From positions 4,480,001-4,544,000 of the forward strand of contig OZ245817.1 in NCBI GenBank assembly GCA_965228475.1: a stretch of 64,000 nucleotides of DNA, read 5' to 3'. Below are positions 2,793 through 18,252 of this stretch, piece by piece. Position 1 is the first letter of the stretch, and each line of letters begins with the position of its first letter. The stretch is from Myxococcota bacterium. GTDB lineage: Bacteria; Myxococcota_A; UBA9160; JAFDDA01. The position numbers and the translations under genes are program-made. The notes below the pieces were generated by a model. It worked only from the letters and a program-made list of their open reading frames with translations. It was not told the DNA's origin and did no database searches.

Positions 2793-2872
2793 CAGACGCT
2801 CCGCGGTGCCCCTCCCCGCTCCTCGCGCTCTGCGGTGGACTGGGCGGTGGCGAATTGAGACAATCGCCCGCG

Positions 2873-5260
2873 ATGGCCGATGCCCTACCGCCGCCCGTGG
2901 CTCCGCGGGTCGAACCGCCGCGTTGGCCGAACAGCCTCTCGGGACGCTTCGTCTTCCTGATCGATGCGGCGAGCGCCTTCGAGCGGAGCCTGCTCGAAGA
3001 GTGGGTCGCAGAGCACCGCCCGGAAGAGGTCTCCGACGCCGACATCGATTGCATCGCGATGCAATCCTCCCGGCGCGGCGGAAGGCGCAAACCCGACGCG
3101 GCCCTCGAGGCACGCCTCGCGGTGGGCGACGACCCGCTGCTGGTTCCGCTGCGCGTCTGCTGGCTCCCGCGCAAGAAGCCGGACGGCCGGCGCTCGGTCC
3201 GCTTCCGCGACCTCCTGTTCGGCGACCCGCGCGACCCGGGCCGGCTGCGCCAGCGCTTCATCCGTTCCCGCGAGCCGGACCGCTGCCGTCTCGTCGCGGG
3301 CGACCCGGCCCCCGCCTCCGAACTTCGCGAGCGCTGGCGCACCGCCTGCGGCTTCGCCGGCGCGGAGACGTTGAGCCTTCCCGAGTACGTGGCGCGCCAG
3401 GCCACCCTCGCCCTCGAGCGCGCCGAGCGGCGCCTGCGCGGCACGCGCTACAAGGTCCCGCGCTTCGTCCACGAAGGCATCCTCTCCCGGCCCGCGTTCC
3501 GCGGCGGCATCGAGCGCATCGCACGGGAGAGCGGGAAGGATGCAAGCCAGCTCGCGAAGACGGCGGCGCGCTACCTGCGCGAGATCGCCGCGACGCACAG
3601 CCCCTTCGTGATCGACCTCGCCTCGAACTTCATCCACTGGCTCTACACGCGCGGCTATTCCGAAACGATCGACTACGACCGCGAGCAGCTCGAGGGCATC
3701 TACGCCCTCGCCCAGCGCCACCCGGTCGTCTTCCTGCCGACGCACAAGTCGAACCTCGACCACCTCTCGCTGCAGTACGTGCTGCACCAGAACGGCCATC
3801 CGCCGAACCACACCGCCGGCGGCATCAACATGAACTTCTTCCCGCTCGGCATGCTCTGGCGCCGCAGCGGTGTCTTCTTCATCCGCCGGAGCTTCAAGGA
3901 CAACGAGCCCTACAAGTTCGTCCTGCGCCAGTACATCGACTACCTCGTCGAGAAGCGCTTCCCCCTCGAGTGGTACATCGAAGGCGGCCGCTCGCGCTCC
4001 GGGAAGCTCCTCCCGCCCCGCTACGGGATGCTCGCCTACGTGGTCGATTCCTACCGGCGCGCCAAGGCCGAGGACGTGATCCTGCTGCCGGTCTCCATCG
4101 CCTACGACCAGATCCAGGACGTCGGCAGCTACGCCGCGGAGCAGAGCGGCGGAGCGAAGCAGGCGGAAGGCTTGGGTTGGTTCCTCGGGGTGGTGCGCTC
4201 GCTCGGCCGGCCCCTCGGAAAGATCCACATGCGCTTCGGCGAGCCCCTCTCCCTGGCGAGCGTGCTCGGCCCCCCCGACCCGGAGGCCGAGCCGCGCGCG
4301 GACGAAGTGAGCCTCGCCATCCAGAAGATCGCCTTCGAAGTGTCGGCGCGAATCAACCGGGCGACGCCGATCACCGCGACGTCGCTCGTCTCGATGGTGC
4401 TGCTCGGACGCGGGGACCGCGCGATGAGCGCCGACCAGATCTTCGACGTCCTCGCACCGCGCCTCGAGTACCTGCGCAAGCGCAAGCTGCCGACCACCGG
4501 GGACCTCGAGCTCGACACGCCGGCCGGCGTACGCCGTGCTCTCGACGCGCTGGCAGGAAACAAGGTGCTCACCTGCTACGACCAGGGCCCGGAGCCCGTC
4601 TACGGCATCGAGGCGAACCAGCACCTCACCGCCGCGTACTACCGCAACACCATCGTCCACTTCTTCGTGAACGCCTCGATCTGCGAGCTGGCCCTGCTGC
4701 GCGCAGCCGAGCCCGAGGCCGGAGAGCCTCTGGAGGCGTTCTGGAAGGAGGCCATGGCCCTGCGCGACCTGCTGAAGTTCGAGTTCTTCTTCGCGGAGAA
4801 GGATTTCTTCCGCCAGGAGATCCGGGAGGAACTCTCGCTCCAGGCGGTCGATTGGGAGGACCGCATCCGCGAGGGCCCGGACTCGATCCTGCGCATGGTG
4901 ACGAACTGGAGCCCCTTCAGCTCCCACCGCACCGTGCGGCCGTTCATCGAGGCGTACCGGGTCGTGAGCGACGAGCTCGAGGGCGCCGACGGCCCGATCG
5001 ACGAGGCCAAGTTCCTGGCCGCGTGCCTGACGCGCGGACGCCAGTACCGTCTCCAGCGCCGCATCCGCAGCGAGGAGTCCGTTTCGAAGGTGCTCTTCCA
5101 GACGGCGCTGAAGCTCGCCGGCAACCGGGGGCTCCTCGACCCCGAGGCCGAGGACCTCGCCGAGGACCGGCAGGAATTCGCCGAGGAAGTCCGCAGCGTC
5201 GCCCGCCGCGTCGAGGGCATCGACGCCCTGGCCGCGAGCCGCAGCGCCGGGATCTGGTAG
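2873..5260 (+). CDS. plsB: Glycerol-3-phosphate acyltransferase (PlsB/GPAT family)
   Basis: HKSNLD (HX4D), FFIRRSF, YIEGGRSRSGK, PVSIAYD blocks; ~795 aa. Confidence 0.85.
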   Translation: MADALPPPVAPRVEPPRWPNSLSGRFVFLIDAASAFERSLLEEWVAEHRPEEVSDADIDCIAMQSSRRGGRRKPDAALEARLAVGDDPLLVPLRVCWLPRKKPDGRRSVRFRDLLFGDPRDPGRLRQRFIRSREPDRCRLVAGDPAPASELRERWRTACGFAGAETLSLPEYVARQATLALERAERRLRGTRYKVPRFVHEGILSRPAFRGGIERIARESGKDASQLAKTAARYLREIAATHSPFVIDLASNFIHWLYTRGYSETIDYDREQLEGIYALAQRHPVVFLPTHKSNLDHLSLQYVLHQNGHPPNHTAGGINMNFFPLGMLWRRSGVFFIRRSFKDNEPYKFVLRQYIDYLVEKRFPLEWYIEGGRSRSGKLLPPRYGMLAYVVDSYRRAKAEDVILLPVSIAYDQIQDVGSYAAEQSGGAKQAEGLGWFLGVVRSLGRPLGKIHMRFGEPLSLASVLGPPDPEAEPRADEVSLAIQKIAFEVSARINRATPITATSLVSMVLLGRGDRAMSADQIFDVLAPRLEYLRKRKLPTTGDLELDTPAGVRRALDALAGNKVLTCYDQGPEPVYGIEANQHLTAAYYRNTIVHFFVNASICELALLRAAEPEAGEPLEAFWKEAMALRDLLKFEFFFAEKDFFRQEIREELSLQAVDWEDRIREGPDSILRMVTNWSPFSSHRTVRPFIEAYRVVSDELEGADGPIDEAKFLAACLTRGRQYRLQRRIRSEESVSKVLFQTALKLAGNRGLLDPEAEDLAEDRQEFAEEVRSVARRVEGIDALAASRSAGIW

Positions 5261-5270
5261 TCGGCCGCGC

Positions 5271-5702
5271 CTAGCCGGCGGAGATCCGCCCGTCACGGAC
5301 CCGGGGGTCCGGAACCTCGCAGTGCTCGCCGCAGACCTCACCGCGGCCCGTGATGCGGAGTCGGTTGCGCGCGAAGAACCGGTACATCGCGTCGAACACG
5401 GGCCGCAGCAGCGGCCAACCGGTCGGCGCCACCAGCCAGCCGAGACCGACCGCGGCGTAGACCCGCCGGAACACCTCGACCCCTTCGACGAGCTCGCCGC
5501 TCGGCAGCACGCCGTGGATCCGCGCCATCAGCTCGCCGTGGGTGCGCCCGTAGCGGGCGGCGTCGAACCCCTCGGCGGCGATGTCCTCGAATCCCGCCCG
5601 AAGGCCTTCGGGATCGCGACGCCGCAGCATCTCGATCTCACGCACGCACAGGGGGCAATCTCCGTCGTAGAGTACCGTGATTTCAGGGCTTTTCGGGTTC
5701 AT
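5271..5702 (-). CDS. DCC1-like thiol-disulfide oxidoreductase (DUF393)
   Basis: VLYDGDCPLC (DxxCxxC) at the N-terminus, YRFFARNR at the C-terminus; GGAG before ATG 5702. Confidence 0.9.
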   Translation of the reverse strand: MNPKSPEITVLYDGDCPLCVREIEMLRRRDPEGLRAGFEDIAAEGFDAARYGRTHGELMARIHGVLPSGELVEGVEVFRRVYAAVGLGWLVAPTGWPLLRPVFDAMYRFFARNRLRITGRGEVCGEHCEVPDPRVRDGRISAG

Positions 5703-5747
5703 GGCTTCTCCGGGCAAGGCGTCGTGTCCAAGGGGAGGATCCCTCGA

Positions 5748-5801
5748 TGAACAACTTTTGTCAAACTTTTATTTGACAAAACTTAGACACTGGCCGATGA
5801 T
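5748..5801. promoter_or_regulatory. Divergent promoter region and probable CarH/LitR-type operator
   Basis: AT-rich island; perfect 10-bp inverted repeat TTTTGTCAAA (5756-5765) / TTTGACAAAA (5772-5781); TTGACA (5773) and TAGACA (5784) at 11-bp spacing; TTGACA-N17-GATGAT on the + strand. Confidence 0.75.
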
Positions 5802-5807
5802 CTCCCC

Positions 5808-6692
5808 ATGTCGGAGATCGAAGGACGCTATTCCGCCGCCGCCGCCAGCCGCCTCACCGGCGTCTCCGCGCACTGCCTGCGCGCCTGGGAGCGCCGCTAC
5901 GGGGCCGTCCGGCCGGTGCGCACGCCGGGCGGCGCCCGGCGCTACTCCGAGCGCGAGGTCCAGCGCCTCCGGCTGCTCCGCCGGGTCGTCTCGGTCGGCC
6001 ACCCCATCAGCGAAGTCGCGGGCCTCGATGACGGCGCCCTCAGCGCACGCCTCGCCGGAACCGAGACCGAGACCCCGCCGGCGGACCTCCGCATCGAAGA
6101 GATGATCGAGGCCGCGCGGGCCCTCGACGTGGACCGGATCGACAGCCACCTGGCGCGCCAGCTCGCAGCGCTCGGCGTGCGCGAGTTCACCCGCGAGGTC
6201 GCCCTCCCCCTGCTCCGCCGCGTAGGGGAGGAGTGGGAAGCCGGACGTTTGGCGCCGACGGGCGAGCACGCCATCAGCGCGACCCTCCGCAGCCTGCTCG
6301 GAGACACGCTCCGGCGCGAAACCTCCCACGCCGAGGGCCCGCGGCTCCTGTTCTCGACGCCCGCGGGCGAGCACCACGAGCTCGGCAGTTTGATCGCGGC
6401 CGCCTACTCCCTCGGCTTCGGCGCACGCGCCGTCTTCCTCGGCGCGAACCTGCCCGCCGAGGAGCTCGCCGCCGCCGCCATCCGCACGGGTGCGAGTGCC
6501 ATCGCCATCGGCCTGGCCGGCCTCGACGCGGAGTCGGCGCGCCGGGAGGCCGAGACCCTTCGACGACTGCTTCCCACGGAGGTCGCCCTGTGGGCCGGCG
6601 GCCCGGGGGCCGAGGCCCTCCGCGACCTCCCTGGAATCCGAATCATCTCGCGCCTGGAGGAAATCGAGAGCCATGTCCGTAGCATCCACTGA
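5808..6692 (+). CDS. MerR-family cobalamin-binding transcriptional regulator (CarH/LitR-like photoreceptor)
   Basis: [11 protein letters not shown]-binding motif; W-x9-EH ([12 protein letters not shown]); ExHxxG (EHHELG); FLGANLP. Confidence 0.9.
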
Positions 6693-7956
6693 CACGTCGG
6701 CCGCGCGCCCTGCCGCGATGGTCTCCGCCCTCGACGGCTACCTCGCCCGTGTGGGTCCGATGACGACGCTCACCCGGGAGGAGGAGGTCGTGCTCGCCAC
6801 CCGCGTGCGCACCGCGACGGCGGAGCTGCGCGACGCCCTCCTCGACATGCCCTACACGGCGAGCGCGATGGTCGGCCGCTGGTGCCACATCCGCTCGGAG
6901 AACCGCGTCACCGGGACGCTGCACGAGCTGCACCGCGACGGCTCCGGCAAGGATCGGAGCCCCGAGGTCGATGAACACCTCGGCGCGATCGATCGGATCC
7001 TTCGACGGCCCGAGCCGGAGACGGAAACGGGCCGGAAGCGGCGCGCCGCGCGCGTGCGGAAGCTCCTCGAAGCGGCGAGCCCGCCCACCGAGATCCTGCT
7101 CGAGATCCAGAAGGAGCTCGAAGGACTCCGCGGTCCGAAGTTCGACGCGGATCGCCAGATGCCGCGCGCCGAGTTCCTTCGCCGCATGCGCGAGATCGAA
7201 GCGATCCACGAGCGCCTGAACGAAGCCAAGAACGAGTTCATCCGGCACAACCTGAAGCTCGTCATCTCCCTGGCCAAGGACTTCCGCGGGATGGGCATCC
7301 CGTTCCTCGACCTCATCCAGGAGGGGAACATCGGGCTGGTGCGCGCGGTGGAGAAGTTCGAGCCCGAACGCGGGTTCAAGTTCTCGACCTACGCGGTGTG
7401 GTGGATCCGCCAGGCGTTCATCCGGGCGATCCAGCGCCACTCGCGGACGGTGCGTCTGCCCTCGCACGTCTACGACCGCCTGATCGCCTGCAAGCGGGAA
7501 GAGGAACGGCTCCAGCACGAGCTCGGCCGGGCGCCGCGGCCCGCGGAGCTGGCCAGCGCCCTCGCGCTCGACGAGCCGACGGTGGAGCGCCTGCTCGAAC
7601 AGCGGACCCAGGCCGTCTCCCTCGACCAGCCCCAGGGCGACGAGGACGACCGGAGCTTCACCGAGCGCCTCGCGGACCCGGACGTCGCGGACCCCTCCGA
7701 GGCCATCGATTCGGCCGCCTTCTCGAGTTCGCTGCGCGGGCTGCTCTCGACGCTCACGCCGCGCGAGCGCATGGTGATCGAGCGCCGCTTCGGCCTGCGG
7801 GGGCCGGAGGAGCCGCTGCGCGCGGTGGGCGAGCGCCTCTCGCTCTCGCGGGAGCGGGTGCGGCAGATCGAGGGTGCGGCCCTCGCCAAGCTCCGCACGG
7901 AGGCGCTGCGCTGCGGATACGATTCCCTGCTGGACGCTTGGGCTCCCGAGGACTAG
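6673..7956 (+). CDS. RNA polymerase sigma-70 factor, group 2-like (RpoD/RpoS family without region 1.1)
   Basis: Region 1.2 ([14 protein letters not shown]), region 2 ([32 protein letters not shown]), region 4 (SRERVRQIE); alternative start 6718. Confidence 0.9.
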
Positions 7957-7965
7957 AACGGAGGC

Positions 7966-8982
7966 ATGACGCTCGGAGAGTGGCAGGATCCGTTCCTGAC
8001 GAGGCTCGCACGCCGCCTGGTCACGATCCCCCTCTACTTCGTCCTGTTCGGCGTCTGTCTCACGCTGCTCCCCGCCCTGCTCGCGGTCGCAGCGGTCGCA
8101 GACCTCGTGCGCGGCGGACCGTGGGTGCTCGTCCGCAGCGTGCTGTTCCTCCAGTGGTACCTGTTCTGCGAGGTCGTGGGAATCGCGTTCGCCCTCGGGA
8201 TCACGGTGTTCGTCCGCGACCCGGAACGCCAGATCGAGCAATTCTTCCGGCTCCAGTGCCGCTGGCTGCGGGCCCTGTTCCAGGGCGGCGTCGTCTGCTT
8301 CTCGCTCCGCGTGGAGATCGAAGGCCGCGATGCCGTCTCTTCGGGCCCGGTTCTCGTCTTCATGCGTCACTCGAGCACGGCGGACGTCGTACTCCCGGGC
8401 GTGTTCCTCGCCGAGCCGCACGGGATCGTCCTACGCTACGTGCTGAAGCGGGAGCTCCTCTGGGACCCGTGCCTCGATCTCGCGGGGCATCGGCTCGTGA
8501 ACTGCTTCATCCGCCGGGGTTCCGGCGCACCCGAGCGCGAGATCGCCGCGATTCGCAGGCTCGGTGAAGACCTCGGCCCGGACGACGGCGTCCTGATCTA
8601 TCCGGAAGGGACGCGCTTCACGCCGTCGAAGCAGGCGCGCGCGCTCGAGCGGATCGCGAAGAGCGGAGACCTGCAACGGCTCGCGCGGGCTCGCGAGCTG
8701 ACCCACGTGCTCCCGCCGCGGCTCGGGGGCCCCCTGGCGCTGCTCGAACAGTGCCCCGACACCGACGTCGTGTTCCTGAGCCACACGGGCTTCGACGGCG
8801 CACGCTCCCTCGACGAGTTCTTCAACGGGGCGCTCGTGGGCCGGACGGTCCGCATGCATTTCTGGCGCTCCCCCCACACGGACATTCCGAAGGACGCCGA
8901 GGGGCGGGAAGCCTGGCTGTTCGACGAATGGCGGAAGGTCGACAAGTTCGTCGCCGCCCACGAAGAGGCACCCGGTTTTTGA
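7966..8982 (+). CDS. Lysophospholipid / 1-acyl-sn-glycerol-3-phosphate acyltransferase family protein
   Basis: HSSTAD (HX4D), YPEGTR; N-terminal TM helices; GGAGG SD. Confidence 0.85.
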   Translation: MTLGEWQDPFLTRLARRLVTIPLYFVLFGVCLTLLPALLAVAAVADLVRGGPWVLVRSVLFLQWYLFCEVVGIAFALGITVFVRDPERQIEQFFRLQCRWLRALFQGGVVCFSLRVEIEGRDAVSSGPVLVFMRHSSTADVVLPGVFLAEPHGIVLRYVLKRELLWDPCLDLAGHRLVNCFIRRGSGAPEREIAAIRRLGEDLGPDDGVLIYPEGTRFTPSKQARALERIAKSGDLQRLARARELTHVLPPRLGGPLALLEQCPDTDVVFLSHTGFDGARSLDEFFNGALVGRTVRMHFWRSPHTDIPKDAEGREAWLFDEWRKVDKFVAAHEEAPGF

Positions 8983-9443
8983 AGATCTACACCCTCGAGC
9001 GCGAACAGCTGATCGCGGCGGAGCCGGAGCGCGTCTTCGACTTCTTCGCCGACGCGAGGAACCTCGAAGCGATCACGCCCCCCTGGCTCGGGTTCCGCAT
9101 CCTCACGCCCGGCCCGATCGAGATGCGCAAGGGCGCGCGGATCGACTACCGGATCGGCCTCGCCGGCATCCCGATGCGCTGGCGGACCTGCATCGCGTCC
9201 TGGGAGCCCGGGCGCGGCTTCGTCGACGAACAGGAGAGCGGACCCTACGCCAAGTGGGAACACCACCACCGGTTCGAGTGCACCGACCGCGGCGTCTTCA
9301 TGAACGATCGCGTGCGCTACGCGCTCCCCCTCGGCCCCCTCGGCCGGATCGCGCACGCGGCGTGGGTCCACTCCGCCCTGGCCCGGATCTTCGATTACCG
9401 CTTCGCTCGCGTCCGGGAGGAGTTCGCGGAGGAGGTCGTTTGA
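8979..9443 (+). CDS. SRPBCC (START/cyclase-fold) ligand-binding protein
   Basis: VFDFFADARNLEAITPPWLGF, FVDEQESGPYAKWEHHHRF; TTG start overlaps the upstream TGA. Confidence 0.85.
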   Translation: MKIYTLEREQLIAAEPERVFDFFADARNLEAITPPWLGFRILTPGPIEMRKGARIDYRIGLAGIPMRWRTCIASWEPGRGFVDEQESGPYAKWEHHHRFECTDRGVFMNDRVRYALPLGPLGRIAHAAWVHSALARIFDYRFARVREEFAEEVV

Positions 9444-10237
9444 GCGAGCTCGCCTCCGTCTGGTTCGCGACGGCGGGCAGCCTCTTCGGCGCGCTCTTCC
9501 TGCTCTGGCTGCTGAGCCTCGCCCTGCGCGACGCGAGCATCGTCGACATCCTCTGGGGCCTCGGCTTCGTGCTCGTCGCCGGCACGGCCTTCGCCGTGGG
9601 CGACGGAACGCCGGCGCGCAAGGCGCTCGTCCTCGGGCTGGCCGCGCTCTGGGGCGGACGGCTCGCCGCGTACCTCGCCTGGCGGAACCTCGGCCACGGG
9701 GAGGACCCGCGCTACCAGCGCATGCGGCGGCACTACGGCGACCGCTTCTGGATCATCAGCCTCTTCTCGGTGTTCGCGCTGCAGGGGGTCCTGCTCTTCC
9801 TCGTCTCCCAGCCGCTGCAGCTCGCGCTGGCCGTCCCGGGCCCGCCCCTCGGCGCCCTCGACGCGGCCGGGGCCTCGCTCGTCCTGCTCGGCGTCGGTTT
9901 CGAGACCGTCGGCGACCTCCAGCTCGCGCGGTTCAAGGCCGACCCGGCGAACGCCGGCCGGGTGATGGACCGCGGCCTCTGGCACTACACGCGTCACCTG
10001 AACTACTTCGGAGATGCCGTCGCCTGGTGGGGCTTCGGCCTGCTGGCCTGCGCGGTCCCGGCGGGCTTCCTCGCGCTCGGCTCCTCGGCGCTGATGACGT
10101 TCCTCTTGCTGCGCGTGTCGGGCGTGGCGCATCTCGAGCGCTCGCTGCGCAAGACCAAGCCCGGCTATGCCGAGTACGTCGCTCGCACGTCGGCCTTCCT
10201 GCCGCGTCCGCCGAAGGCGCTGCCGCCCGAGGCCTAG
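9440..10237 (+). CDS. DUF1295 family membrane protein (steroid 5-alpha-reductase-like)
   Basis: ASIVDILWG, GEDPRY, GLWHYTRH.NYFG, YVARTSAFLP; TTG overlaps the upstream stop. Confidence 0.85.
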   Translation: MSELASVWFATAGSLFGALFLLWLLSLALRDASIVDILWGLGFVLVAGTAFAVGDGTPARKALVLGLAALWGGRLAAYLAWRNLGHGEDPRYQRMRRHYGDRFWIISLFSVFALQGVLLFLVSQPLQLALAVPGPPLGALDAAGASLVLLGVGFETVGDLQLARFKADPANAGRVMDRGLWHYTRHLNYFGDAVAWWGFGLLACAVPAGFLALGSSALMTFLLLRVSGVAHLERSLRKTKPGYAEYVARTSAFLPRPPKALPPEA

Positions 10238-10241
10238 GCCC

Positions 10242-11588
10242 CTAGCCGATCAGGTCCTGGATCGACTGCCACAGGACGACCAGCAGCAGCAGCGGGACCA
10301 CGGTGCGCAGCAGGAGGCGCCAGAGCCCGAACCAGGCCACGTCCTCGGCGCCCTGGCGCGCCTCGGCCTCCGGGTTCTTCATGACCCAGCCCACGAACAG
10401 GGCGAGCATCAGACCGCCGAAGACGAGGAAGACGTTCCCGGCGAGCTGATCCATCTTGCCGAGCACGTCGAGATCGAGGGCGGCGGGGATTCCGAGGGCG
10501 GCGACCGCGGCGCCGAGCACCAGCGCGGCCCGCCGCCGCTCCCAGCCGAGCTGATCGATCGCCGTCGAGACGACGACCTCGAGCAGCGAGATCGCCGACG
10601 TCAGCGCGCCGACGGCCAGCGCCACGAAGAAGAACGGCCCGACGACGCGGCCGGCGGCGCCCATCTCGTGGAAGGCCCCGGGCAGCGTGATGAACAGCGC
10701 ACCGACCGTGCTCCCCCCGACCTGCTCCTGGAGGCCGAGGGCGAAGAGCAGGGGAAAGACGGCCAGGCCCGCGACGAAGGCCACCCCGAAATCCGCGCCG
10801 GCGATCATCAGCGATTCGTTCGGCAGGTTTTCGTCCCGCCGCACGTAGCTCGCGTAGGTGAGCATCGCACCCATCCCAAGCGAAAGACTGAAGAAGGCCT
10901 GCCCGGCGGCGTGGTTCAGGACCTCGAAGCGGAGCACCTCTTCGAGATCCACGGAGAGGTAGAAGGCGTAGCCCTTGCCGGCGCCTTCGAGCGTGCCCGC
11001 GTAGATCGCGATGCCGCAGACGATCGCGAACAGGAGCGGCATCAGGACGAGGGAGGCGCGCTCGATGCCCCGGTTCACGCCCCCGAGCACGACGGCGATC
11101 GTGATCGCCATGAAGCCGAGGTGCCAGGCGACCGCGGCCGGCCCGGTCGAGACCGTCTCGAAGTAGGCACCGGCATCCGGCCCGAAGCCCGAGAGAGACG
11201 TCAGCCCATAGCGCAGGGTCCAGCCCGCGATGACGCTGTAGTAGGAAAGGATCAGGAATCCCGAGCCGAGGAAAAGCGCGCCGAGCGGCTTCCAGGCAGT
11301 TCCGCCGTAGTGGGCGAGTGCGCCGACCGGGCTGCGCCCGGACCCGCGTCCCACCACGAACTCCGCGAGCATCACCGGCAGCCCGACCAGGGCAACCAGG
11401 ACGAGGTAGACGACGAGGAAGGCGGCACCGCCGTTTTCCGCGGTCAGGTAGGAAAACCGCCACATGTTGCCCAGGCCGACGGCCGAGCCGACCGCGGCAA
11501 GGATGAAGCCGAGGCGGCTTCCCCATTGTTCCCGGCTCTCTGCGGGGTCGCGCTCTTCGGGACCTGCCTTCACGTTCGTCTCTCCCAC
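10242..11588 (-). CDS. Sodium-dependent transporter (NSS/SNF family)
   Basis: WGSRLGFILAAVGSAVGLGNMWRF, GQAFFSLSLG; many TM helices. Confidence 0.92.
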   Translation of the reverse strand: MGETNVKAGPEERDPAESREQWGSRLGFILAAVGSAVGLGNMWRFSYLTAENGGAAFLVVYLVLVALVGLPVMLAEFVVGRGSGRSPVGALAHYGGTAWKPLGALFLGSGFLILSYYSVIAGWTLRYGLTSLSGFGPDAGAYFETVSTGPAAVAWHLGFMAITIAVVLGGVNRGIERASLVLMPLLFAIVCGIAIYAGTLEGAGKGYAFYLSVDLEEVLRFEVLNHAAGQAFFSLSLGMGAMLTYASYVRRDENLPNESLMIAGADFGVAFVAGLAVFPLLFALGLQEQVGGSTVGALFITLPGAFHEMGAAGRVVGPFFFVALAVGALTSAISLLEVVVSTAIDQLGWERRRAALVLGAAVAALGIPAALDLDVLGKMDQLAGNVFLVFGGLMLALFVGWVMKNPEAEARQGAEDVAWFGLWRLLLRTVVPLLLLVVLWQSIQDLIG

Positions 11589-11699: not shown

Positions 11700-12803
11700 A
11701 TGCCTTCCTCCTCCGCGCGAGACGTCGGCGGCGGCAGCAGCCCGGTGCGCCGCCAGATCCAATCCGCCCCAAATCAAGAGACGCCTTTCGAAGCGGTCGC
11801 CCCCCGGGCTTCCGTGTGGGTGGACGAACGCACGGAGGACCCGGACCACTTCGCGCGGTCCGTTGCGCGGGGCCTCTCCGGCGACCCCCGGCAGCTCGAC
11901 TGCCGCTACCTGTACGACGAAGCGGGGAGCGAGCTCTTCGCGGAGATCACCCAGCAGCCCGAGTACTACCCGACCCGGACCGAGGCCAGCATCCTCGAGC
12001 GCCACGCCAGCGAGCTGGCCCGGACCCTCGGCTCGATGCCGATCTGTGAGCTCGGCTCCGGCAACTCGGAGAAGACCCGCCTGCTGCTCGAGGCCTGGGC
12101 TGCCGAGACGGAGGGCGCGTTCCACTACGTCCCCATCGACATCGACCCGGGCGTGGTGCGCTCGGCCGCCGAAGAACTCGTCGCGGCCCACCCGACGCTC
12201 CAGGTCTCGGGCCTGGCCACCTCGTACGAGCACGCCCTCGAGCGCCTGCGGGAGCTCTCGCCGAAGCTCGTCCTGTTCCTCGGCTCGACGATCGGGAACT
12301 TCGAACCGGCGGAGATGGATCTCTTCCTACGCCGCATCCAGGCCGCACTCCAGCCCGGCGACGCCTTCCTGCTCGGCGTCGATCTCGTGAAGGACGCTTC
12401 GACCCTCGAAGCCGCCTACAACGACGCGGCCGGCGTGACCGAGCGCTTCACCTTGAACCTCTTCGAGCGCATGAACCGCGAGCTCGACACCGCCATCCCC
12501 GAGAAGGCCGTCGAGCACGTCGCGTTCTGGAACGAAGGCCGAGATCAAATCGAGATCTACGGCCGCTTCCGCGAAGCCGTCCAGATCGAACTCCCCGGCT
12601 TCGACGACGCCTTCTCCATCGAGTCCGGGGAGATGGTGCAGGTCGAGGTGAGCCGGAAGTTCCGCGTCGATCGCCTGGCCGAGGACCTCGCCCGCTACGG
12701 CCTTCGCCAGGAGCGGGTCTTCTCCGACCCCGAAGACCTCTTCGCACTGATCCTGCTGCGCCGGGAGAACGATGCAGAGCCGAACGGGCGCGACGCAGCC
12801 TGA
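11700..12803 (+). CDS. egtD: L-histidine N-alpha-methyltransferase (EgtD family)
   Basis: YLYDEAGSELF, PEYYPTRTE, ELGSGNSEKT, FLGSTIGN, AYNDAAGVT. Confidence 0.88.
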   Translation: MPSSSARDVGGGSSPVRRQIQSAPNQETPFEAVAPRASVWVDERTEDPDHFARSVARGLSGDPRQLDCRYLYDEAGSELFAEITQQPEYYPTRTEASILERHASELARTLGSMPICELGSGNSEKTRLLLEAWAAETEGAFHYVPIDIDPGVVRSAAEELVAAHPTLQVSGLATSYEHALERLRELSPKLVLFLGSTIGNFEPAEMDLFLRRIQAALQPGDAFLLGVDLVKDASTLEAAYNDAAGVTERFTLNLFERMNRELDTAIPEKAVEHVAFWNEGRDQIEIYGRFREAVQIELPGFDDAFSIESGEMVQVEVSRKFRVDRLAEDLARYGLRQERVFSDPEDLFALILLRRENDAEPNGRDAA

Positions 12804-15640: not shown

Positions 15641-16726
15641 TCAGCTCCCCGCGCCCTTCGCCTCTTCCTGCGCGACCATCGGTTCGAACCGCCCCTTGTC
15701 GAGCGCCTTCATCATCGCGTCCGAAGCCTTGATCTTCCCCGACTTCACCAGGTCGAAGAGGCAGTCGTCCATCGCCTGCATCCCTTCCTTCTTCCCGCCC
15801 TGGATGATGGAAGAGATCATGGGCGTGTTGCCCTCGCGGATGACGTTCCCGAGGCCCTGGGTGCGAAGCAGGATCTCGTGGACCGCGCAGCGGCCCTTCC
15901 CGTCCGCGGTCGGGACGAGGAGCTGGGAGACGACGGCGCCGAGGCTCTCGGCCAGGCTGATGCGCACCTGGCTCTGTTCCTCGGCCGGGAAGGCGTCGAT
16001 GATGCGGTCGATGGTCTTGGCAGCGCTGTTGGTGTGCAGCGTTCCGAAGACCAGGGAGCCCATCTCGGCCGCGGTGATCGCGAGCGAGATCGTTTCGTAG
16101 TCGCGCATCTCGCCGACGAGAATGATGTTCGCGTCCTGGCGGATCACCGCGCGCAACGCGCCGCCGAAGCCGTCGGTGTGGTCCCCGACCTCGCGATGCG
16201 AGATCACGCACTGATCGTTCTGGTGAACGAACTCGACGGGGTCCTCGATCGTCACGATGTGCTTCGCGTGCTTCTTGTTGATGCGATGGATGATCGCCGC
16301 GAGCGTCGTCGACTTGCCCGAACCCGTCGGCCCGGTGACGAGCACCAGCCCCGATTCGAGATCGGCCAGGTCCACGATCGACTGCGGAATCCCGAGGTCC
16401 TCCGCCGGGATGATCTCTTCGGGGATGATGCGAAAGACCGCGCCGGCCCCGTTCTCCTGGGTGAAGTAGTTCGCCCGGAAGCGGGCCACGCCCGGAATGG
16501 CGTGGGCGAAGTCGAGGTCCCCGCAGCCGCTGTACTCGTTCCACTGCTTCTCGTTCGTGATCTCCTCGAGCAGATCTCGGAGCGTCTCGTCCGAGAGCGC
16601 CGACTCGCCGGGGATCGGAACGAGACGGCCGGACTTGCGGAAGCGCGGCTCGAGCGTGGCGGCCAGGTGGAGGTCCGAAGCGCCCTCGGTCTTCAGCATG
16701 GTGAGCAGGCGATCGATCTCGGCCAC
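15641..16726 (-). CDS. pilT: Type IV pilus retraction ATPase, PilT family
   Basis: ASDLHL, GPTGSGKS, TIEDPVE, VGEMRD, GTLHT, GNVIRE, GMQAMD. Confidence 0.9.
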   Translation of the reverse strand: MAEIDRLLTMLKTEGASDLHLAATLEPRFRKSGRLVPIPGESALSDETLRDLLEEITNEKQWNEYSGCGDLDFAHAIPGVARFRANYFTQENGAGAVFRIIPEEIIPAEDLGIPQSIVDLADLESGLVLVTGPTGSGKSTTLAAIIHRINKKHAKHIVTIEDPVEFVHQNDQCVISHREVGDHTDGFGGALRAVIRQDANIILVGEMRDYETISLAITAAEMGSLVFGTLHTNSAAKTIDRIIDAFPAEEQSQVRISLAESLGAVVSQLLVPTADGKGRCAVHEILLRTQGLGNVIREGNTPMISSIIQGGKKEGMQAMDDCLFDLVKSGKIKASDAMMKALDKGRFEPMVAQEEAKGAGS

Positions 16727-16728
16727 GG

Positions 16729-18252
16729 TTATTCCTTCCCGCCGAAGCGCCGCGGGTCATCGCAGAACCGGAGCGCGGATTCCTTGGTGATGGTGCCGTC
16801 CGCGACGAGCTTCTGGAGCGACTCGTCGAGCAGGCACATGCCGTGCGCGGCACCGGTCTGGAGGATCGACTGGATCTGCACGGTCTTGTTCTCGCGGATC
16901 AGGTTGCCCACGGCCTTGGTCACGACCATGACCTCGAGGGCCGGCACGCGCCCGTTTCCATCGGCACGCGGAACGAGCCGCTGGGAGATGACCGCGCGGA
17001 GCGACTCGGAGACCATCGTGCGGATCTGGTTCTGCTGGTTCGGCGGGAACACGCCGATCAGCCGGTTGATCGTGCGGATGGCCGAGTTCGTGTGCAGCGT
17101 GCCCAGCACGAAGTGGCCGGTCTCCGCGGCCGTCAGGGCCAGCGAGATCGTCTCGAGGTCCCGAAGCTCGCCGATCCCGATGATGTCCGGGTCTTCACGC
17201 AGCGCCGCACGCAGCGCCCGGGCGAAGGTCTCGGTGTGCGGGCCGACCTGGCGCTGATTGACCAGACACGACTTCGTCTTGTGGACCACCTCGATCGGGT
17301 CTTCCACGGTGATGATGTGGTCCTCGCGACCTTCGTTCACGAGCGAGAGCAGCGCCGCCATCGTGGCGGACTTGCCGCATCCGGCCGGGCCGGTCACGAG
17401 CACCATGCCCTGGTGGTAGCCGGTGAACTTGGCGAGTGATTCCGGAAGGCCGAGGCTCTCGAGCGTCGGCGGCTCGGGCGGAACGAGACGGAACGTGGCG
17501 TCGAGCCCGCGCTGCTGACGGTACGCGTTCGAACGGAAGCGTCCGACGCCGTCGAGGGCGTAGGCGAAGTCCACCTGTCCGGTCCGGCAGAGCGCCTCCC
17601 ACTGCACGTCGTCGAGCAGGTCGGAGAGCATCGCCTCGCACTCGTTCGGGTCGAGAGGCTGTTCACCGTGCATCCGGAGTTCGCCGTTCACGCGCATGCG
17701 CAGCGGCGCCCCGGCATGGACGTGGAGGTCGCTTGCGCCGAGATCCGCGGCCTCCTTCATCAGGGCGTGCACCTTCTCGCGCGCGCCTTCGGAGCCGGGC
17801 GGCCGGGCCGCGACTTCGATCGAGCCGACGGTTGCCGCAGCGCCGGCGGGATTCGCGCTCTCCGTCTTCGCCGGAGCGGCGGGTTTCTGCGGAGCGGGCC
17901 GGTCCTGTGCGGGGCGCGGCGCCTCCGCCGGAGCCGCACTCGCGCTCGCCGCCGGTTCGGGCGCGGCGCTCTTCTCCACGATGGGCTTCGAGGGCACGCG
18001 CGCCGCGGCGGGTTCCGGAGCAGGCGCGGCCCCCTGCGCTGCCTTCTGGGCGCGGTGCTTCACGAGCATGTCGCGCTGGATCTGCACCAGGCGATCGATC
18101 TGCTTCTGCTGGGCCCACCCCTTCTCGATGAAGTAGTCGCAGAGGCGGGCGGGGTCGCCCTCCTCGCGCATCGCTTCGGCGAGCTGGTCGGCGGTGATCA
18201 GTTTGTAGTGGACGGCCAGGCGGCCGAGCAGCGGAGTCTTTGCGTCGCTCAT
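16729..18252 (-). CDS. pilT: PilT-family ATPase with N-terminal MshEN-like extension and Ala/Pro linker
   Basis: GPAGCGKS, TVEDPIE, ALREDPD, GELRD, TGHFVLGTLHT, AVGNLIRE; ~155 extra N-terminal residues. Confidence 0.88.
   Translation of the reverse strand: MSDAKTPLLGRLAVHYKLITADQLAEAMREEGDPARLCDYFIEKGWAQQKQIDRLVQIQRDMLVKHRAQKAAQGAAPAPEPAAARVPSKPIVEKSAAPEPAASASAAPAEAPRPAQDRPAPQKPAAPAKTESANPAGAAATVGSIEVAARPPGSEGAREKVHALMKEAADLGASDLHVHAGAPLRMRVNGELRMHGEQPLDPNECEAMLSDLLDDVQWEALCRTGQVDFAYALDGVGRFRSNAYRQQRGLDATFRLVPPEPPTLESLGLPESLAKFTGYHQGMVLVTGPAGCGKSATMAALLSLVNEGREDHIITVEDPIEVVHKTKSCLVNQRQVGPHTETFARALRAALREDPDIIGIGELRDLETISLALTAAETGHFVLGTLHTNSAIRTINRLIGVFPPNQQNQIRTMVSESLRAVISQRLVPRADGNGRVPALEVMVVTKAVGNLIRENKTVQIQSILQTGAAHGMCLLDESLQKLVADGTITKESALRFCDDPRRFGGKE

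Follow-up and report, generated by a model that had tools for sequence, protein, structure and literature searches.

A CarH-type photoreceptor gene in a predicted operon with a group-2-like sigma factor and lipid-related genes in a Myxococcota bacterium

In Streptomyces coelicolor and S. griseus, a B12-based photoreceptor repressor of the MerR type, LitR, is paired with the gene of a sigma factor, LitS (PMC11519972, PMC9758184; these and the other published articles are cited throughout from the available parts of their text). CarH homologues are defined by two motifs taken together, namely Wx9EH, which caps the adenosyl group, and a cobalamin-binding motif of the form ExHx2G-x41-SxV/T-x22-27-GG (PMC8156234), while published CarH operators are built from 11-bp repeats in tandem (nnnnTnnACAn), with the -35 element inside one of them (PMC9304148). 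Here we describe a locus from a Myxococcota bacterium, located in a stretch of 64,000 nucleotides (contig OZ245817.1, positions 4,480,001 to 4,544,000, referred to below as the window), in which the gene of a CarH-type regulator overlaps the gene of a group-2-like sigma-70 factor and is followed by three lipid-related genes. Judging from its sequence, it is reasonably probable that this predicted five-gene operon is repressed in the dark and induced by light, i.e. that it encodes a cascade of the LitR-LitS kind built with a group-2-like sigma factor, so that in this uncultured, myxobacterium-like organism light would probably bring a second level of gene control into play. To our knowledge, the B12-photoreceptor circuits known so far have structural genes (carotenoid, photolyase) as their end point or run by way of sigma factors of the extracytoplasmic function (ECF) class.

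Between positions 5271 and 10237 of the window we found six genes, all at the coordinates proposed in the first-pass annotation, and Pfam confirmed every domain named there (Table 1). The GC content of the window is ~71%; reading frames were chosen by codon-position GC, and the called frames are each backed by a third-position value (GC3) of ~0.86-0.94. The long open reading frame (ORF) of the sigma gene opens at 6490, and its start was refined to the ATG at 6673, which has a GGAGG (6656-6660) 12 nt upstream and agrees with the N-termini of the orthologues in the alignment. For the divergent gene of the DCC1-like oxidoreductase, the ATG at 5702 is a likelier start than the TTG at 5717, the first possible one. 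The remaining genes are closely packed: carH (stop codon 6690-6692) and the sigma gene overlap by 20 nt, the ATG of the acyltransferase gene lies 9 nt past the sigma stop codon, and the TTG starts of the SRPBCC and DUF1295 genes both overlap the preceding stop codon as TTGA. The description of the locus as a series of overlapping or near-abutting genes thus stands, and we identify carH-sigma-acyltransferase-SRPBCC-DUF1295 as a predicted five-gene operon with a divergent DCC gene. On its 3' side, the DUF1295 gene is followed after 4 nt by a convergent gene for a transporter of the SNF (sodium:neurotransmitter symporter) family.

The spacer between the DCC gene and carH is AT-rich, measures 105 bp, and contains a promoter-like site of the sigma-70 type. 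The -10 element of this site ends 6 nt ahead of the carH ATG, so that the transcript would be leaderless or nearly so, and the -35 hexamer falls inside a predicted CarH operator. This operator comprises two full nnnnTnnACAn repeats, at 5769-5779 (TTATTTGACAA) and at 5780-5790 (AACTTAGACAC), a partial repeat at 5758-5768, and a palindrome, TGTCAA-N8-TTGACA (5759-5778), which occurs once in the 64 kb and in none of 100 shuffles; the tandem TnnACA-N5-TnnACA also has a single occurrence in the 64 kb, versus 0.06 expected. A scan of 5200-10400 revealed no promoter-like or terminator-like site between the five genes. The earlier view that these genes act as a unit is therefore consistent with their arrangement, since they are packed behind a single promoter-like site under a CarH-type operator. 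No Rfam family matched anywhere in the window, hence no cobalamin riboswitch is predicted in it.

The regulator can be aligned over its full length with CarH of Thermus thermophilus (5C8D and 3WHP; E 9.5e-29 for 5C8D). It contains the sequences RAWERRY, W143-x9-E153-H154 and E188-x-H190-x-x-G193, the last of them followed by GG at the expected spacing (x41, then x26, as counted by hand on the translation). Among 40 relatives, W143, E153, H154 and H190 do not vary, and E188 and G193 are found in at least 90%. The protein had been called a CarH/LitR regulator with intact RxWERRY, W-x9-EH and ExHxxG motifs, all of which are indeed aligned to their counterparts in the Thermus protein, with a deviation in the SxV/T element (G-L-A); by W-x9-EH and ExHxxG we assign it to the predicted B12 photoreceptors of the CarH type.

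The sigma factor consists of region 1.2, a helical, non-conserved segment of ~130 amino acids (aa) specific to its family, and regions 2, 3 and 4. Region 1.1 is absent, with ~20 residues ahead of region 1.2 compared to ~95 in Escherichia coli RpoD, and an alignment with the orthologues shows that the promoter-reading motifs WWIRQA (region 2.4) and SRERVRQIE (region 4.2) are kept. Among the NCBIfam models, those of the RpoD/RpoS type score 276 bits (TIGR02997, RpoD/SigA family; cutoff 384.5), 270 bits (NF004208, RpoD equivalog; cutoff 555), 229 bits (TIGR02393; cutoff 354) and 243 bits (RpoS), versus 138 for RpoH, 117 for SigB/F/G and 100 for FliA, in agreement with the first-pass annotation of a non-ECF, RpoD/RpoS-like factor; the only cutoff reached is that of the generic sigma-70 superfamily (TIGR02937, 110.9 bits, cutoff 42.9). 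RpoD/SigA chains from structures of the holoenzyme are matched by the AlphaFold2 (AF2) model of the protein (pLDDT 87). ECF (group 4) sigma factors such as LitS and CarQ comprise regions 2 and 4 only, span ~170-200 aa and usually have a cognate anti-sigma gene. Membership in this class is ruled out by the length of 427 aa, by the presence of regions 1.2 and 3, and by the lack of any anti-sigma-like gene in the carH-sigma unit.

Homologues of both the sigma factor and the regulator are mostly metagenome proteins, and the few named ones come from metagenome-assembled genomes (MAGs) of Myxococcota/Myxococcales. Thirteen proteins are 55-64% identical to the sigma factor, and all others at most 49%; a search of representative sequences returned a large set of proteins of 400-500 aa that align with it over the full length at 38-58% identity. 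Homologues of at least 550 aa align over its C-terminal half only, and 26 of the 30 long comparison proteins scanned pass the RpoD equivalog cutoff of 555. In the FastTree phylogeny of 144 rows, the sigma factor of the window clusters with its 13 orthologues in a clade of support 100. This clade is part of a family of 93 rows (support 100, branch 0.78) that also includes the sigma factors of four related CarH loci described below (L015/L022, L016 and L006) and lies apart from E. coli RpoS and from a 37-row group that contains E. coli RpoD and all 26 cutoff-passing rows. IQ-TREE (54 rows) splits a 32-row family from 13 RpoD rows with SH-aLRT of 100 for the family and 99 for RpoD; as the root provided by E. 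coli RpoH landed inside the sigma family on a long branch, we claim a split and not a rooted clade. The phylogeny called for at the outset thus places the protein away from primary RpoD (SH-aLRT 100 in IQ-TREE, with the same split in FastTree), and we classify it as a group-2-like sigma factor, neither ECF nor primary RpoD by sequence, and a member of a distinct RpoD-like family of 400-500 aa. A separate search with residues 20-185 returned only 10 proteins of the orthologue group, with no named or characterised relative among them.

In order to compare the locus with its relatives, we used 80 CarH loci from among the matches listed (at least 601 stretches) in a contig scan with a 40-sequence CarH alignment; loci are denoted by L numbers where they have to be told apart. 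The CarH proteins of these loci are all at most 48% identical to that of the window, the set thus comprising neither the window's own genome nor its closest (55-65% identical) relatives, and neighbouring genes were counted by tblastn with the window proteins and by a hidden Markov model (HMM) of the sigma family. The 80 loci (1.21 Mb) contain 13 palindromes of the form TGTCWA-N8-9-TWGACA, distributed over 12 loci, compared to 0.06 on average in 50 dinucleotide shuffles, and all 13 adjoin light-related genes. Tandem repeats T[AT]GAC[AT]-N5-T[AT]GAC[AT] number six (0.62 in local block shuffles), and each of them is situated upstream of carH or of a sigma gene. At all four Myxococcota-type loci in which a sigma gene lies within 4.4 kb of carH (the window, L015, L016 and L022), the sigma gene or the operon that contains it has a CarH-type site ahead of it, and these four loci span three gene arrangements. 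Control of the sigma gene in the manner of LitR-LitS is accordingly reflected at the sequence level, by a predicted operator before the carH-sigma operon and by one ahead of the sigma gene at L015, L016 and L022; the link between CarH and the sigma factor, proposed earlier from the window, gains from the predicted sites that these three relatives carry at the sigma gene itself.

Table 1. Predicted features of the carH-sigma locus in the window and corresponding features of the listed CarH loci
Feature	Position or loci	Strand	Remarks
DCC1-like thiol-disulfide oxidoreductase gene	5271..5717	-	Pfam PF04134, 90.4 bits; divergent from carH
Predicted CarH operator	5758..5790	.	two full 11-bp repeats, one partial repeat and a palindrome
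Sigma-70-type promoter-like site, TTGACA-17-GATGAT	5773..5801	+	sole such site in 5200-10400; shuffles mean 0.2
carH (MerR-type DNA-binding and AdoCbl-binding light-sensing domains), 294 aa	5808..6692	+	Pfam MerR_1, B12-binding_2, B12-binding
Sigma-70 family factor gene, 427 aa	6673..7956	+	Pfam Sigma70 r1_2 (weak, 18.1 bits), r2, r3, r4
PlsC/AGPAT-like acyltransferase gene, 338 aa	7966..8982	+	Pfam PF01553, 41.7 bits
SRPBCC (START/Bet v1-like) lipid- or ligand-binding protein gene, 154 aa	8979..9443	+	Pfam PF03364, PF10604 (Polyketide_cyc/SRPBCC)
DUF1295 membrane protein gene, 265 aa	9440..10237	+	Pfam PF06966, 231.7 bits; PF02544, 24.4 bits
Palindrome upstream of carH	L001, L004, L006, L007, L016, L017, L019, L073		8 sites
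Palindrome between carH and acyltransferase gene	L008, L010
Palindrome between carH and sigma gene	L015 7360-7379
Palindrome between sigma gene and DCC gene	L016 15611-15631		~50 bp from sigma start
Palindrome upstream of lycopene cyclase gene	L020 2557-2576
Tandem repeats ahead of sigma gene	L015 7374-7390; L022 9958-9974		37 bp before sigma ATG in L022
YhhN/GDSL stretches downstream of the lipid genes	L007 12538-14433; L019 7710-9635; L017 8440-9081		YhhN after DCC in L007, L017
Acyltransferase homologue	12 of the 80 listed CarH loci
SRPBCC homologue	13 of the 80 listed CarH loci
DUF1295 homologue	12 of the 80 listed CarH loci
DCC homologue	10 of the 80 listed CarH loci
Non-ECF sigma gene	10 of the 80 listed CarH loci		family HMM, not sensitive to ECF sigmas

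The sigma-linked relatives differ in gene content. L015 and L022 are syntenic with the window (M20-PlsB-...-carH-sigma) and also carry DUF523/DUF1722, CMAS-type methyltransferase and acyltransferase genes, and in L022 photolyase and DUF1365 genes, while L016 has carH-SDR ... acyltransferase-SRPBCC followed by the sigma gene on the opposite strand beside DCC. The family HMM gave just 10 non-ECF sigma factors at the 80 loci and is not sensitive to ECF ones. In the CarH tree, the regulator of the window falls into a 36-row clade of the Myxococcota type (support 99) with four subclades, three of which include sigma-linked loci. The pairing of carH with a sigma gene is patchy: the synteny search suggested by the first-pass annotation shows that it recurs in L015, L016 and L022, and that 18 of 22 loci of this clade have no sigma gene within the fetched flanks. 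Three of the 13 sigma orthologues can be matched to close CarH orthologues by identical sizes of the longest contig (44278, 6583 and 10180), which provides indirect evidence that the CarH and sigma orthologues travel together, the other 10 of 13 being beyond judgement by this approach.

Several of these loci show further peculiarities. In L020, the palindrome is flanked by an ABC ATPase gene and the lycopene cyclase gene, 6.4 kb from carH, and the lycopene cyclase gene is likely to be a remote target of CarH. In L008 (8413-9916) and L010 (6175-7678), carH comes after a PNPOx-like gene and has no operator in front of it; the palindrome is located behind carH and ahead of the acyltransferase gene, which suggests that CarH is not autoregulated there. 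L022 (6272-8778) contains a regulator with a MerR domain only and no B12 domain (similar to class II LitR), located between the DUF523/DUF1722 and photolyase genes; all of these are divergent from carH-sigma, so that two light regulators are present at one locus. The M20 and PlsB proteins of L022 are ~60-73% identical to those of the window. Five loci labelled as Spirochaetales/Spirochaetaceae (L002, L003, L007, L009 and L022) fall among loci labelled as Myxococcota/Deltaproteobacteria in the CarH tree, and the taxon labels of these MAGs look unreliable.

A second pairing of carH with a sigma gene was found in Methylococcaceae. In six loci (L040, L046, L051, L058, L059 and L067) carH is divergent from an operon that encodes a sigma factor of 390-420 aa, two SPFH/Band-7 (HflK/C-like) proteins and FtsH; Pfam annotation of this operon was made for L040 and L058. 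In L058 (3648-9918), the operon goes on to SRPBCC, PAS and fatty-acid hydroxylase genes, and the spacer contains a TGTCAA-N9-TATACA element. RpoD/RpoS models also match this sigma factor best (209 bits versus 127 for RpoH), and in both FastTree and IQ-TREE it is placed outside the Myxococcota sigma family, on a long branch of its own. Methylococcaceae are thus predicted to pair CarH with a different RpoD/RpoS-like sigma factor, independently, and their unit looks like a light-gated proteostasis module.

From family knowledge, the following course of events can be proposed for the window. In the dark, CarH bound to adenosylcobalamin (AdoCbl) would oligomerize on the tandem 11-bp repeats and mask the -35 element of the single promoter. 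Light from UV to green would photolyse AdoCbl, CarH would leave the DNA, and the housekeeping RNA polymerase would transcribe the operon. As the five genes are translationally packed behind one promoter-like site, the sigma factor would be made together with more CarH, which amounts to negative autoregulation, and with the three lipid-related proteins. Being RpoD-like, with conserved residues for reading the -10 and -35 elements, the sigma factor could then relay the light signal to unlinked promoters; its candidate targets are photolyase, fatty-acid methylase and carotenoid genes, which are found at CarH loci of relatives and are absent from the 64-kb window. The acyltransferase, SRPBCC, DUF1295 and DCC proteins may counter photo-oxidative damage by remodelling or repairing the lipids of the membrane. 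The original suggestion that light releases the sigma factor has to be reworded: light would derepress its transcription, and there is no release in the strict sense, no anti-sigma factor having been seen. A wider sigma regulon is pure inference.

Several observations weigh against the light-gated cascade, and they can be considered together with the readings that they favour. One of these is that CarH controls the operon and the sigma factor is a passenger, either a redundant RpoD-like paralogue or a general booster of sigma-70-type promoters. The residues that read the -10 and -35 elements are nearly those of RpoD, which implies a possible overlap with the housekeeping sigma factor and no distinct regulon, and the intergenic DNA after the sigma gene of L015 and L022 yielded no shared motif that could represent a distinct target promoter. 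The presence of a sigma gene within the fetched flanks at only 4 of the 22 clade loci, several of which are short, points in the same direction. Against the cascade also stand L006, in which the sigma gene lies 6 kb from carH and has no obvious operator upstream, and the sample of listed loci, composed of relatives more distant than the 55-65% identical ones. Nevertheless, we regard a passenger role as unlikely, because a CarH-type operator has been kept at the sigma gene of L015, L016 and L022 in three different arrangements, which argues for selection on its light control, and because Methylococcaceae have paired CarH with a sigma factor independently.

It is even less likely that the five genes are not one transcription unit, with internal promoters answering to other signals and with an adjacency due to genome compaction. 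With an overlap of 20 nt, a gap of 9 nt and two TTGA junctions, the genes are left without intergenic space, and neither promoter-like nor terminator-like sites were detected between the genes; still, consensus scans predict the promoters of GC-rich bacteria poorly. The sigma genes of L015 and L022 do have upstream regions of their own, so that separate promoters exist in relatives, but these regions carry CarH-type sites themselves. We consider it quite improbable that the regulator senses cobalamin supply or the redox state instead of light, which would make the operon a response to B12 status. The G-L-A in place of SxV/T, at a position that also varies in relatives, would fit such a function, and so would the score of 130.5 bits for the NCBIfam CarH equivalog (NF052513, TransRegCarH), which is the best NCBIfam match and yet far below the cutoff of 400; on the other side stand the W-x9-EH motif, intact here and invariant in the 40 relatives (for its role see PMC8156234), and the photolyase and carotenoid genes found beside the same type of operator in related loci. 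Finally, it is hardly conceivable that the sigma factor is the primary housekeeping one, as the JGI automatic names of some relatives ('primary sigma factor') and the best structural matches would have it, given the 270 bits against an RpoD equivalog cutoff passed by most long proteins, the missing region 1.1, and a branch of support 100 that separates it from the RpoD group.

The lipid-related genes accompany CarH more widely than the sigma gene does. In six loci (L001, L007, L008, L010, L017 and L019) carH is directly followed by acyltransferase-SRPBCC-DUF1295 without a sigma gene, which suggests that the lipid genes are common CarH cargo and that the sigma gene is a lineage-specific addition. 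The lipid genes noted in the first-pass annotation are therefore present, but they are not peculiar to the sigma unit. In these loci, DCC follows the lipid genes on the same strand (L001, L007 and L017) or on the opposite one (L008), and a photolyase gene is divergent (L001, L007, L017 and L019, as well as L073) or downstream (L008). Throughout the listed loci the companions of the lipid genes are photolyase, DUF523/DUF1722, CMAS, DUF1365, SDR and YhhN. Comparable gene sets belong to singlet-oxygen or blue-light regulons, namely those of Rhodobacter sigmaE (PMC6852236), Pseudomonas class II LitR (PMC9758184) and Vibrio (PMC5241685), and the CFA and DUF1365 genes to that of Chlamydomonas (PMC4067076); by analogy, light-induced remodelling or repair of lipids by the CarH-linked genes is a reasonable inference.

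As for the individual proteins, the translation of the acyltransferase contains the HX4D (RHSSTAD) and YPEGTR motifs, and its NCBIfam matches (YihG/AGPAT) are weak. The DUF1295 protein appears to be related to steroid/sterol reductases mainly by Pfam; the supporting matches are weak both in sequence (SRD5A2, 7BW1, E 0.0027) and in fold, the best ones for the AF2 model (pLDDT 85.6) being 4QUV (E 0.17, TM 0.42) and 7BW1 (TM 0.49), and Foldseek with this model found nothing at E of 0.001 or lower. In the sigma-less L007, L017 and L019, a YhhN gene is located downstream of acyltransferase-SRPBCC-DUF1295 on the same strand, and L007 and L019 also have a gene for a GDSL-type lipase there. The YhhN family includes lysoplasmalogenases, and the presence of these two genes strengthens the lipid-remodelling interpretation.

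Tblastn and a Pfam analysis of 46 ORFs detected no homologue of photolyase, CMAS, lycopene cyclase, DUF523, YhhN, GDSL or DUF1365, no carotenoid gene and no second sigma gene within the 64 kb; the reported absence of carotenoid and photolyase genes from the unit thus extends to the whole window. Directly upstream of DCC, at 2855-5260 (+), we found the gene of a PlsB-type glycerol-3-phosphate acyltransferase, i.e. another lipid gene adjoining the unit, which has no operator of its own and keeps its position in L015 and L022. Beside the SNF transporter gene, the end of a long ORF (~11853-12803, +) encodes a Methyltransf_33 domain (histidine-specific SAM methyltransferase, EgtD-like), and this domain near the light operon may indicate synthesis of an ergothioneine-type thiol. 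Two neighbouring genes for T2SSE-family ATPases (PilB/PilT-like) are located at 15641-18252 (-).

If CarH controls an RpoD-like sigma factor, non-phototrophs would have a new way of spreading a light signal genome-wide, and a function could be assigned to a sizeable unnamed sigma family, mostly of uncultured Myxococcota. Acyltransferase-SRPBCC-DUF1295-DCC(-YhhN-GDSL) under the same operator would point to an uncharacterised light-induced programme of membrane lipids. A much broader proposition, which we put forward as speculation and rather doubt, is that the whole RpoD-like family of 400-500 aa (93 of the 144 tree rows, and roughly 90 of the best 150 clusters at 50% identity, as judged by length and full-length alignment) is a dedicated 'daylight sigma' of Myxococcota-type bacteria and a direct target of CarH. 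In that case light would swap a second housekeeping-like sigma factor onto RNA polymerase and reprogram much of the transcription in non-phototrophs, in parallel to the use of group 2 sigma factors by cyanobacteria, and the CarH-sigma-HflKC-FtsH unit of Methylococcaceae would be a convergent solution. On the practical side, LitR-LitS already serves optogenetics in Streptomyces (PMC11519972), and the compact unit of operator, CarH and sigma factor could be used in optogenetics as a light-to-sigma amplifier.

Comparison with described systems delimits what is particular to the locus. With CarH of Myxococcus xanthus and Thermus thermophilus (PMC9304148, PMC8156234, PDB 5C8D) the regulator shares the domain order, Wx9EH and ExHxxG, as well as an operator of 11-bp TnnACA repeats that overlaps a TTGACA -35 element; unlike it, these proteins regulate carotenoid operons that depend on the primary sigma factor, with no sigma gene in the unit according to the available parts of these sources, whereas the window has no carotenoid gene and a G-L-A at the SxV/T element. 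The cascade of Rhodobacter sphaeroides from sigmaE-ChrR to RpoHII (PMC6852236) resembles the proposed one in that a photo-oxidative signal is passed to a non-ECF sigma factor that controls most of the response, and in that lipid-modifying genes belong to the core response, but its input is singlet oxygen perceived through an ECF/anti-sigma pair and its second sigma factor is of the sigma-32 type. In the clusters of Pseudomonas class II LitR, PplR/PmlR (PMC9758184), and of the Vibrio cholerae MerR-like/ChrR blue-light response (PMC5241685), a MerR-type repressor stands at a group of light genes (photolyase, short-chain dehydrogenase, FAD oxidoreductase, UfaM/CFA-type), similar to the photolyase, DUF523/DUF1722, CMAS, DUF1365 and SDR genes carried by L015, L016 and L022; these regulators differ in lacking the B12 domain and relying on LOV partners or reactive oxygen species, and the sources, as far as available, place no sigma factor in the MerR-controlled unit. 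In the window, as opposed to Rhodobacter, a B12 photoreceptor repressor is predicted to provide the input, and the sigma factor is RpoD-like.

The group 2 sigma factors of cyanobacteria are RpoD-like, presumably non-essential, and serve environmental reprogramming. We know of none under the control of a CarH repressor. The sigma factor of the window is distinguished from these proteins (10.1101/2021.12.09.472044, PMC1087845) by its score on TIGR02997, 276 bits and hence below the cutoff of 384.5, and by its separate family in the tree. In the open-access literature, including the available parts of a survey of CarH in Myxococcales (PMC9304148), we found no description of CarH/LitR paired with a non-ECF sigma factor. 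Closest in its logic is LitR-LitS, where a photoreceptor repressor also gates a sigma gene and derepression by light yields a sigma factor that relays the signal; LitS, however, is an ECF (group 4) factor that drives carotenoid genes, whereas the sigma factor of the window is RpoD-like, with regions 1.2-4, and shares its operon with lipid genes. The logic of the circuit is thus already known from LitR-LitS, and what differs is the class of the sigma factor, its family, and the lipid cargo.

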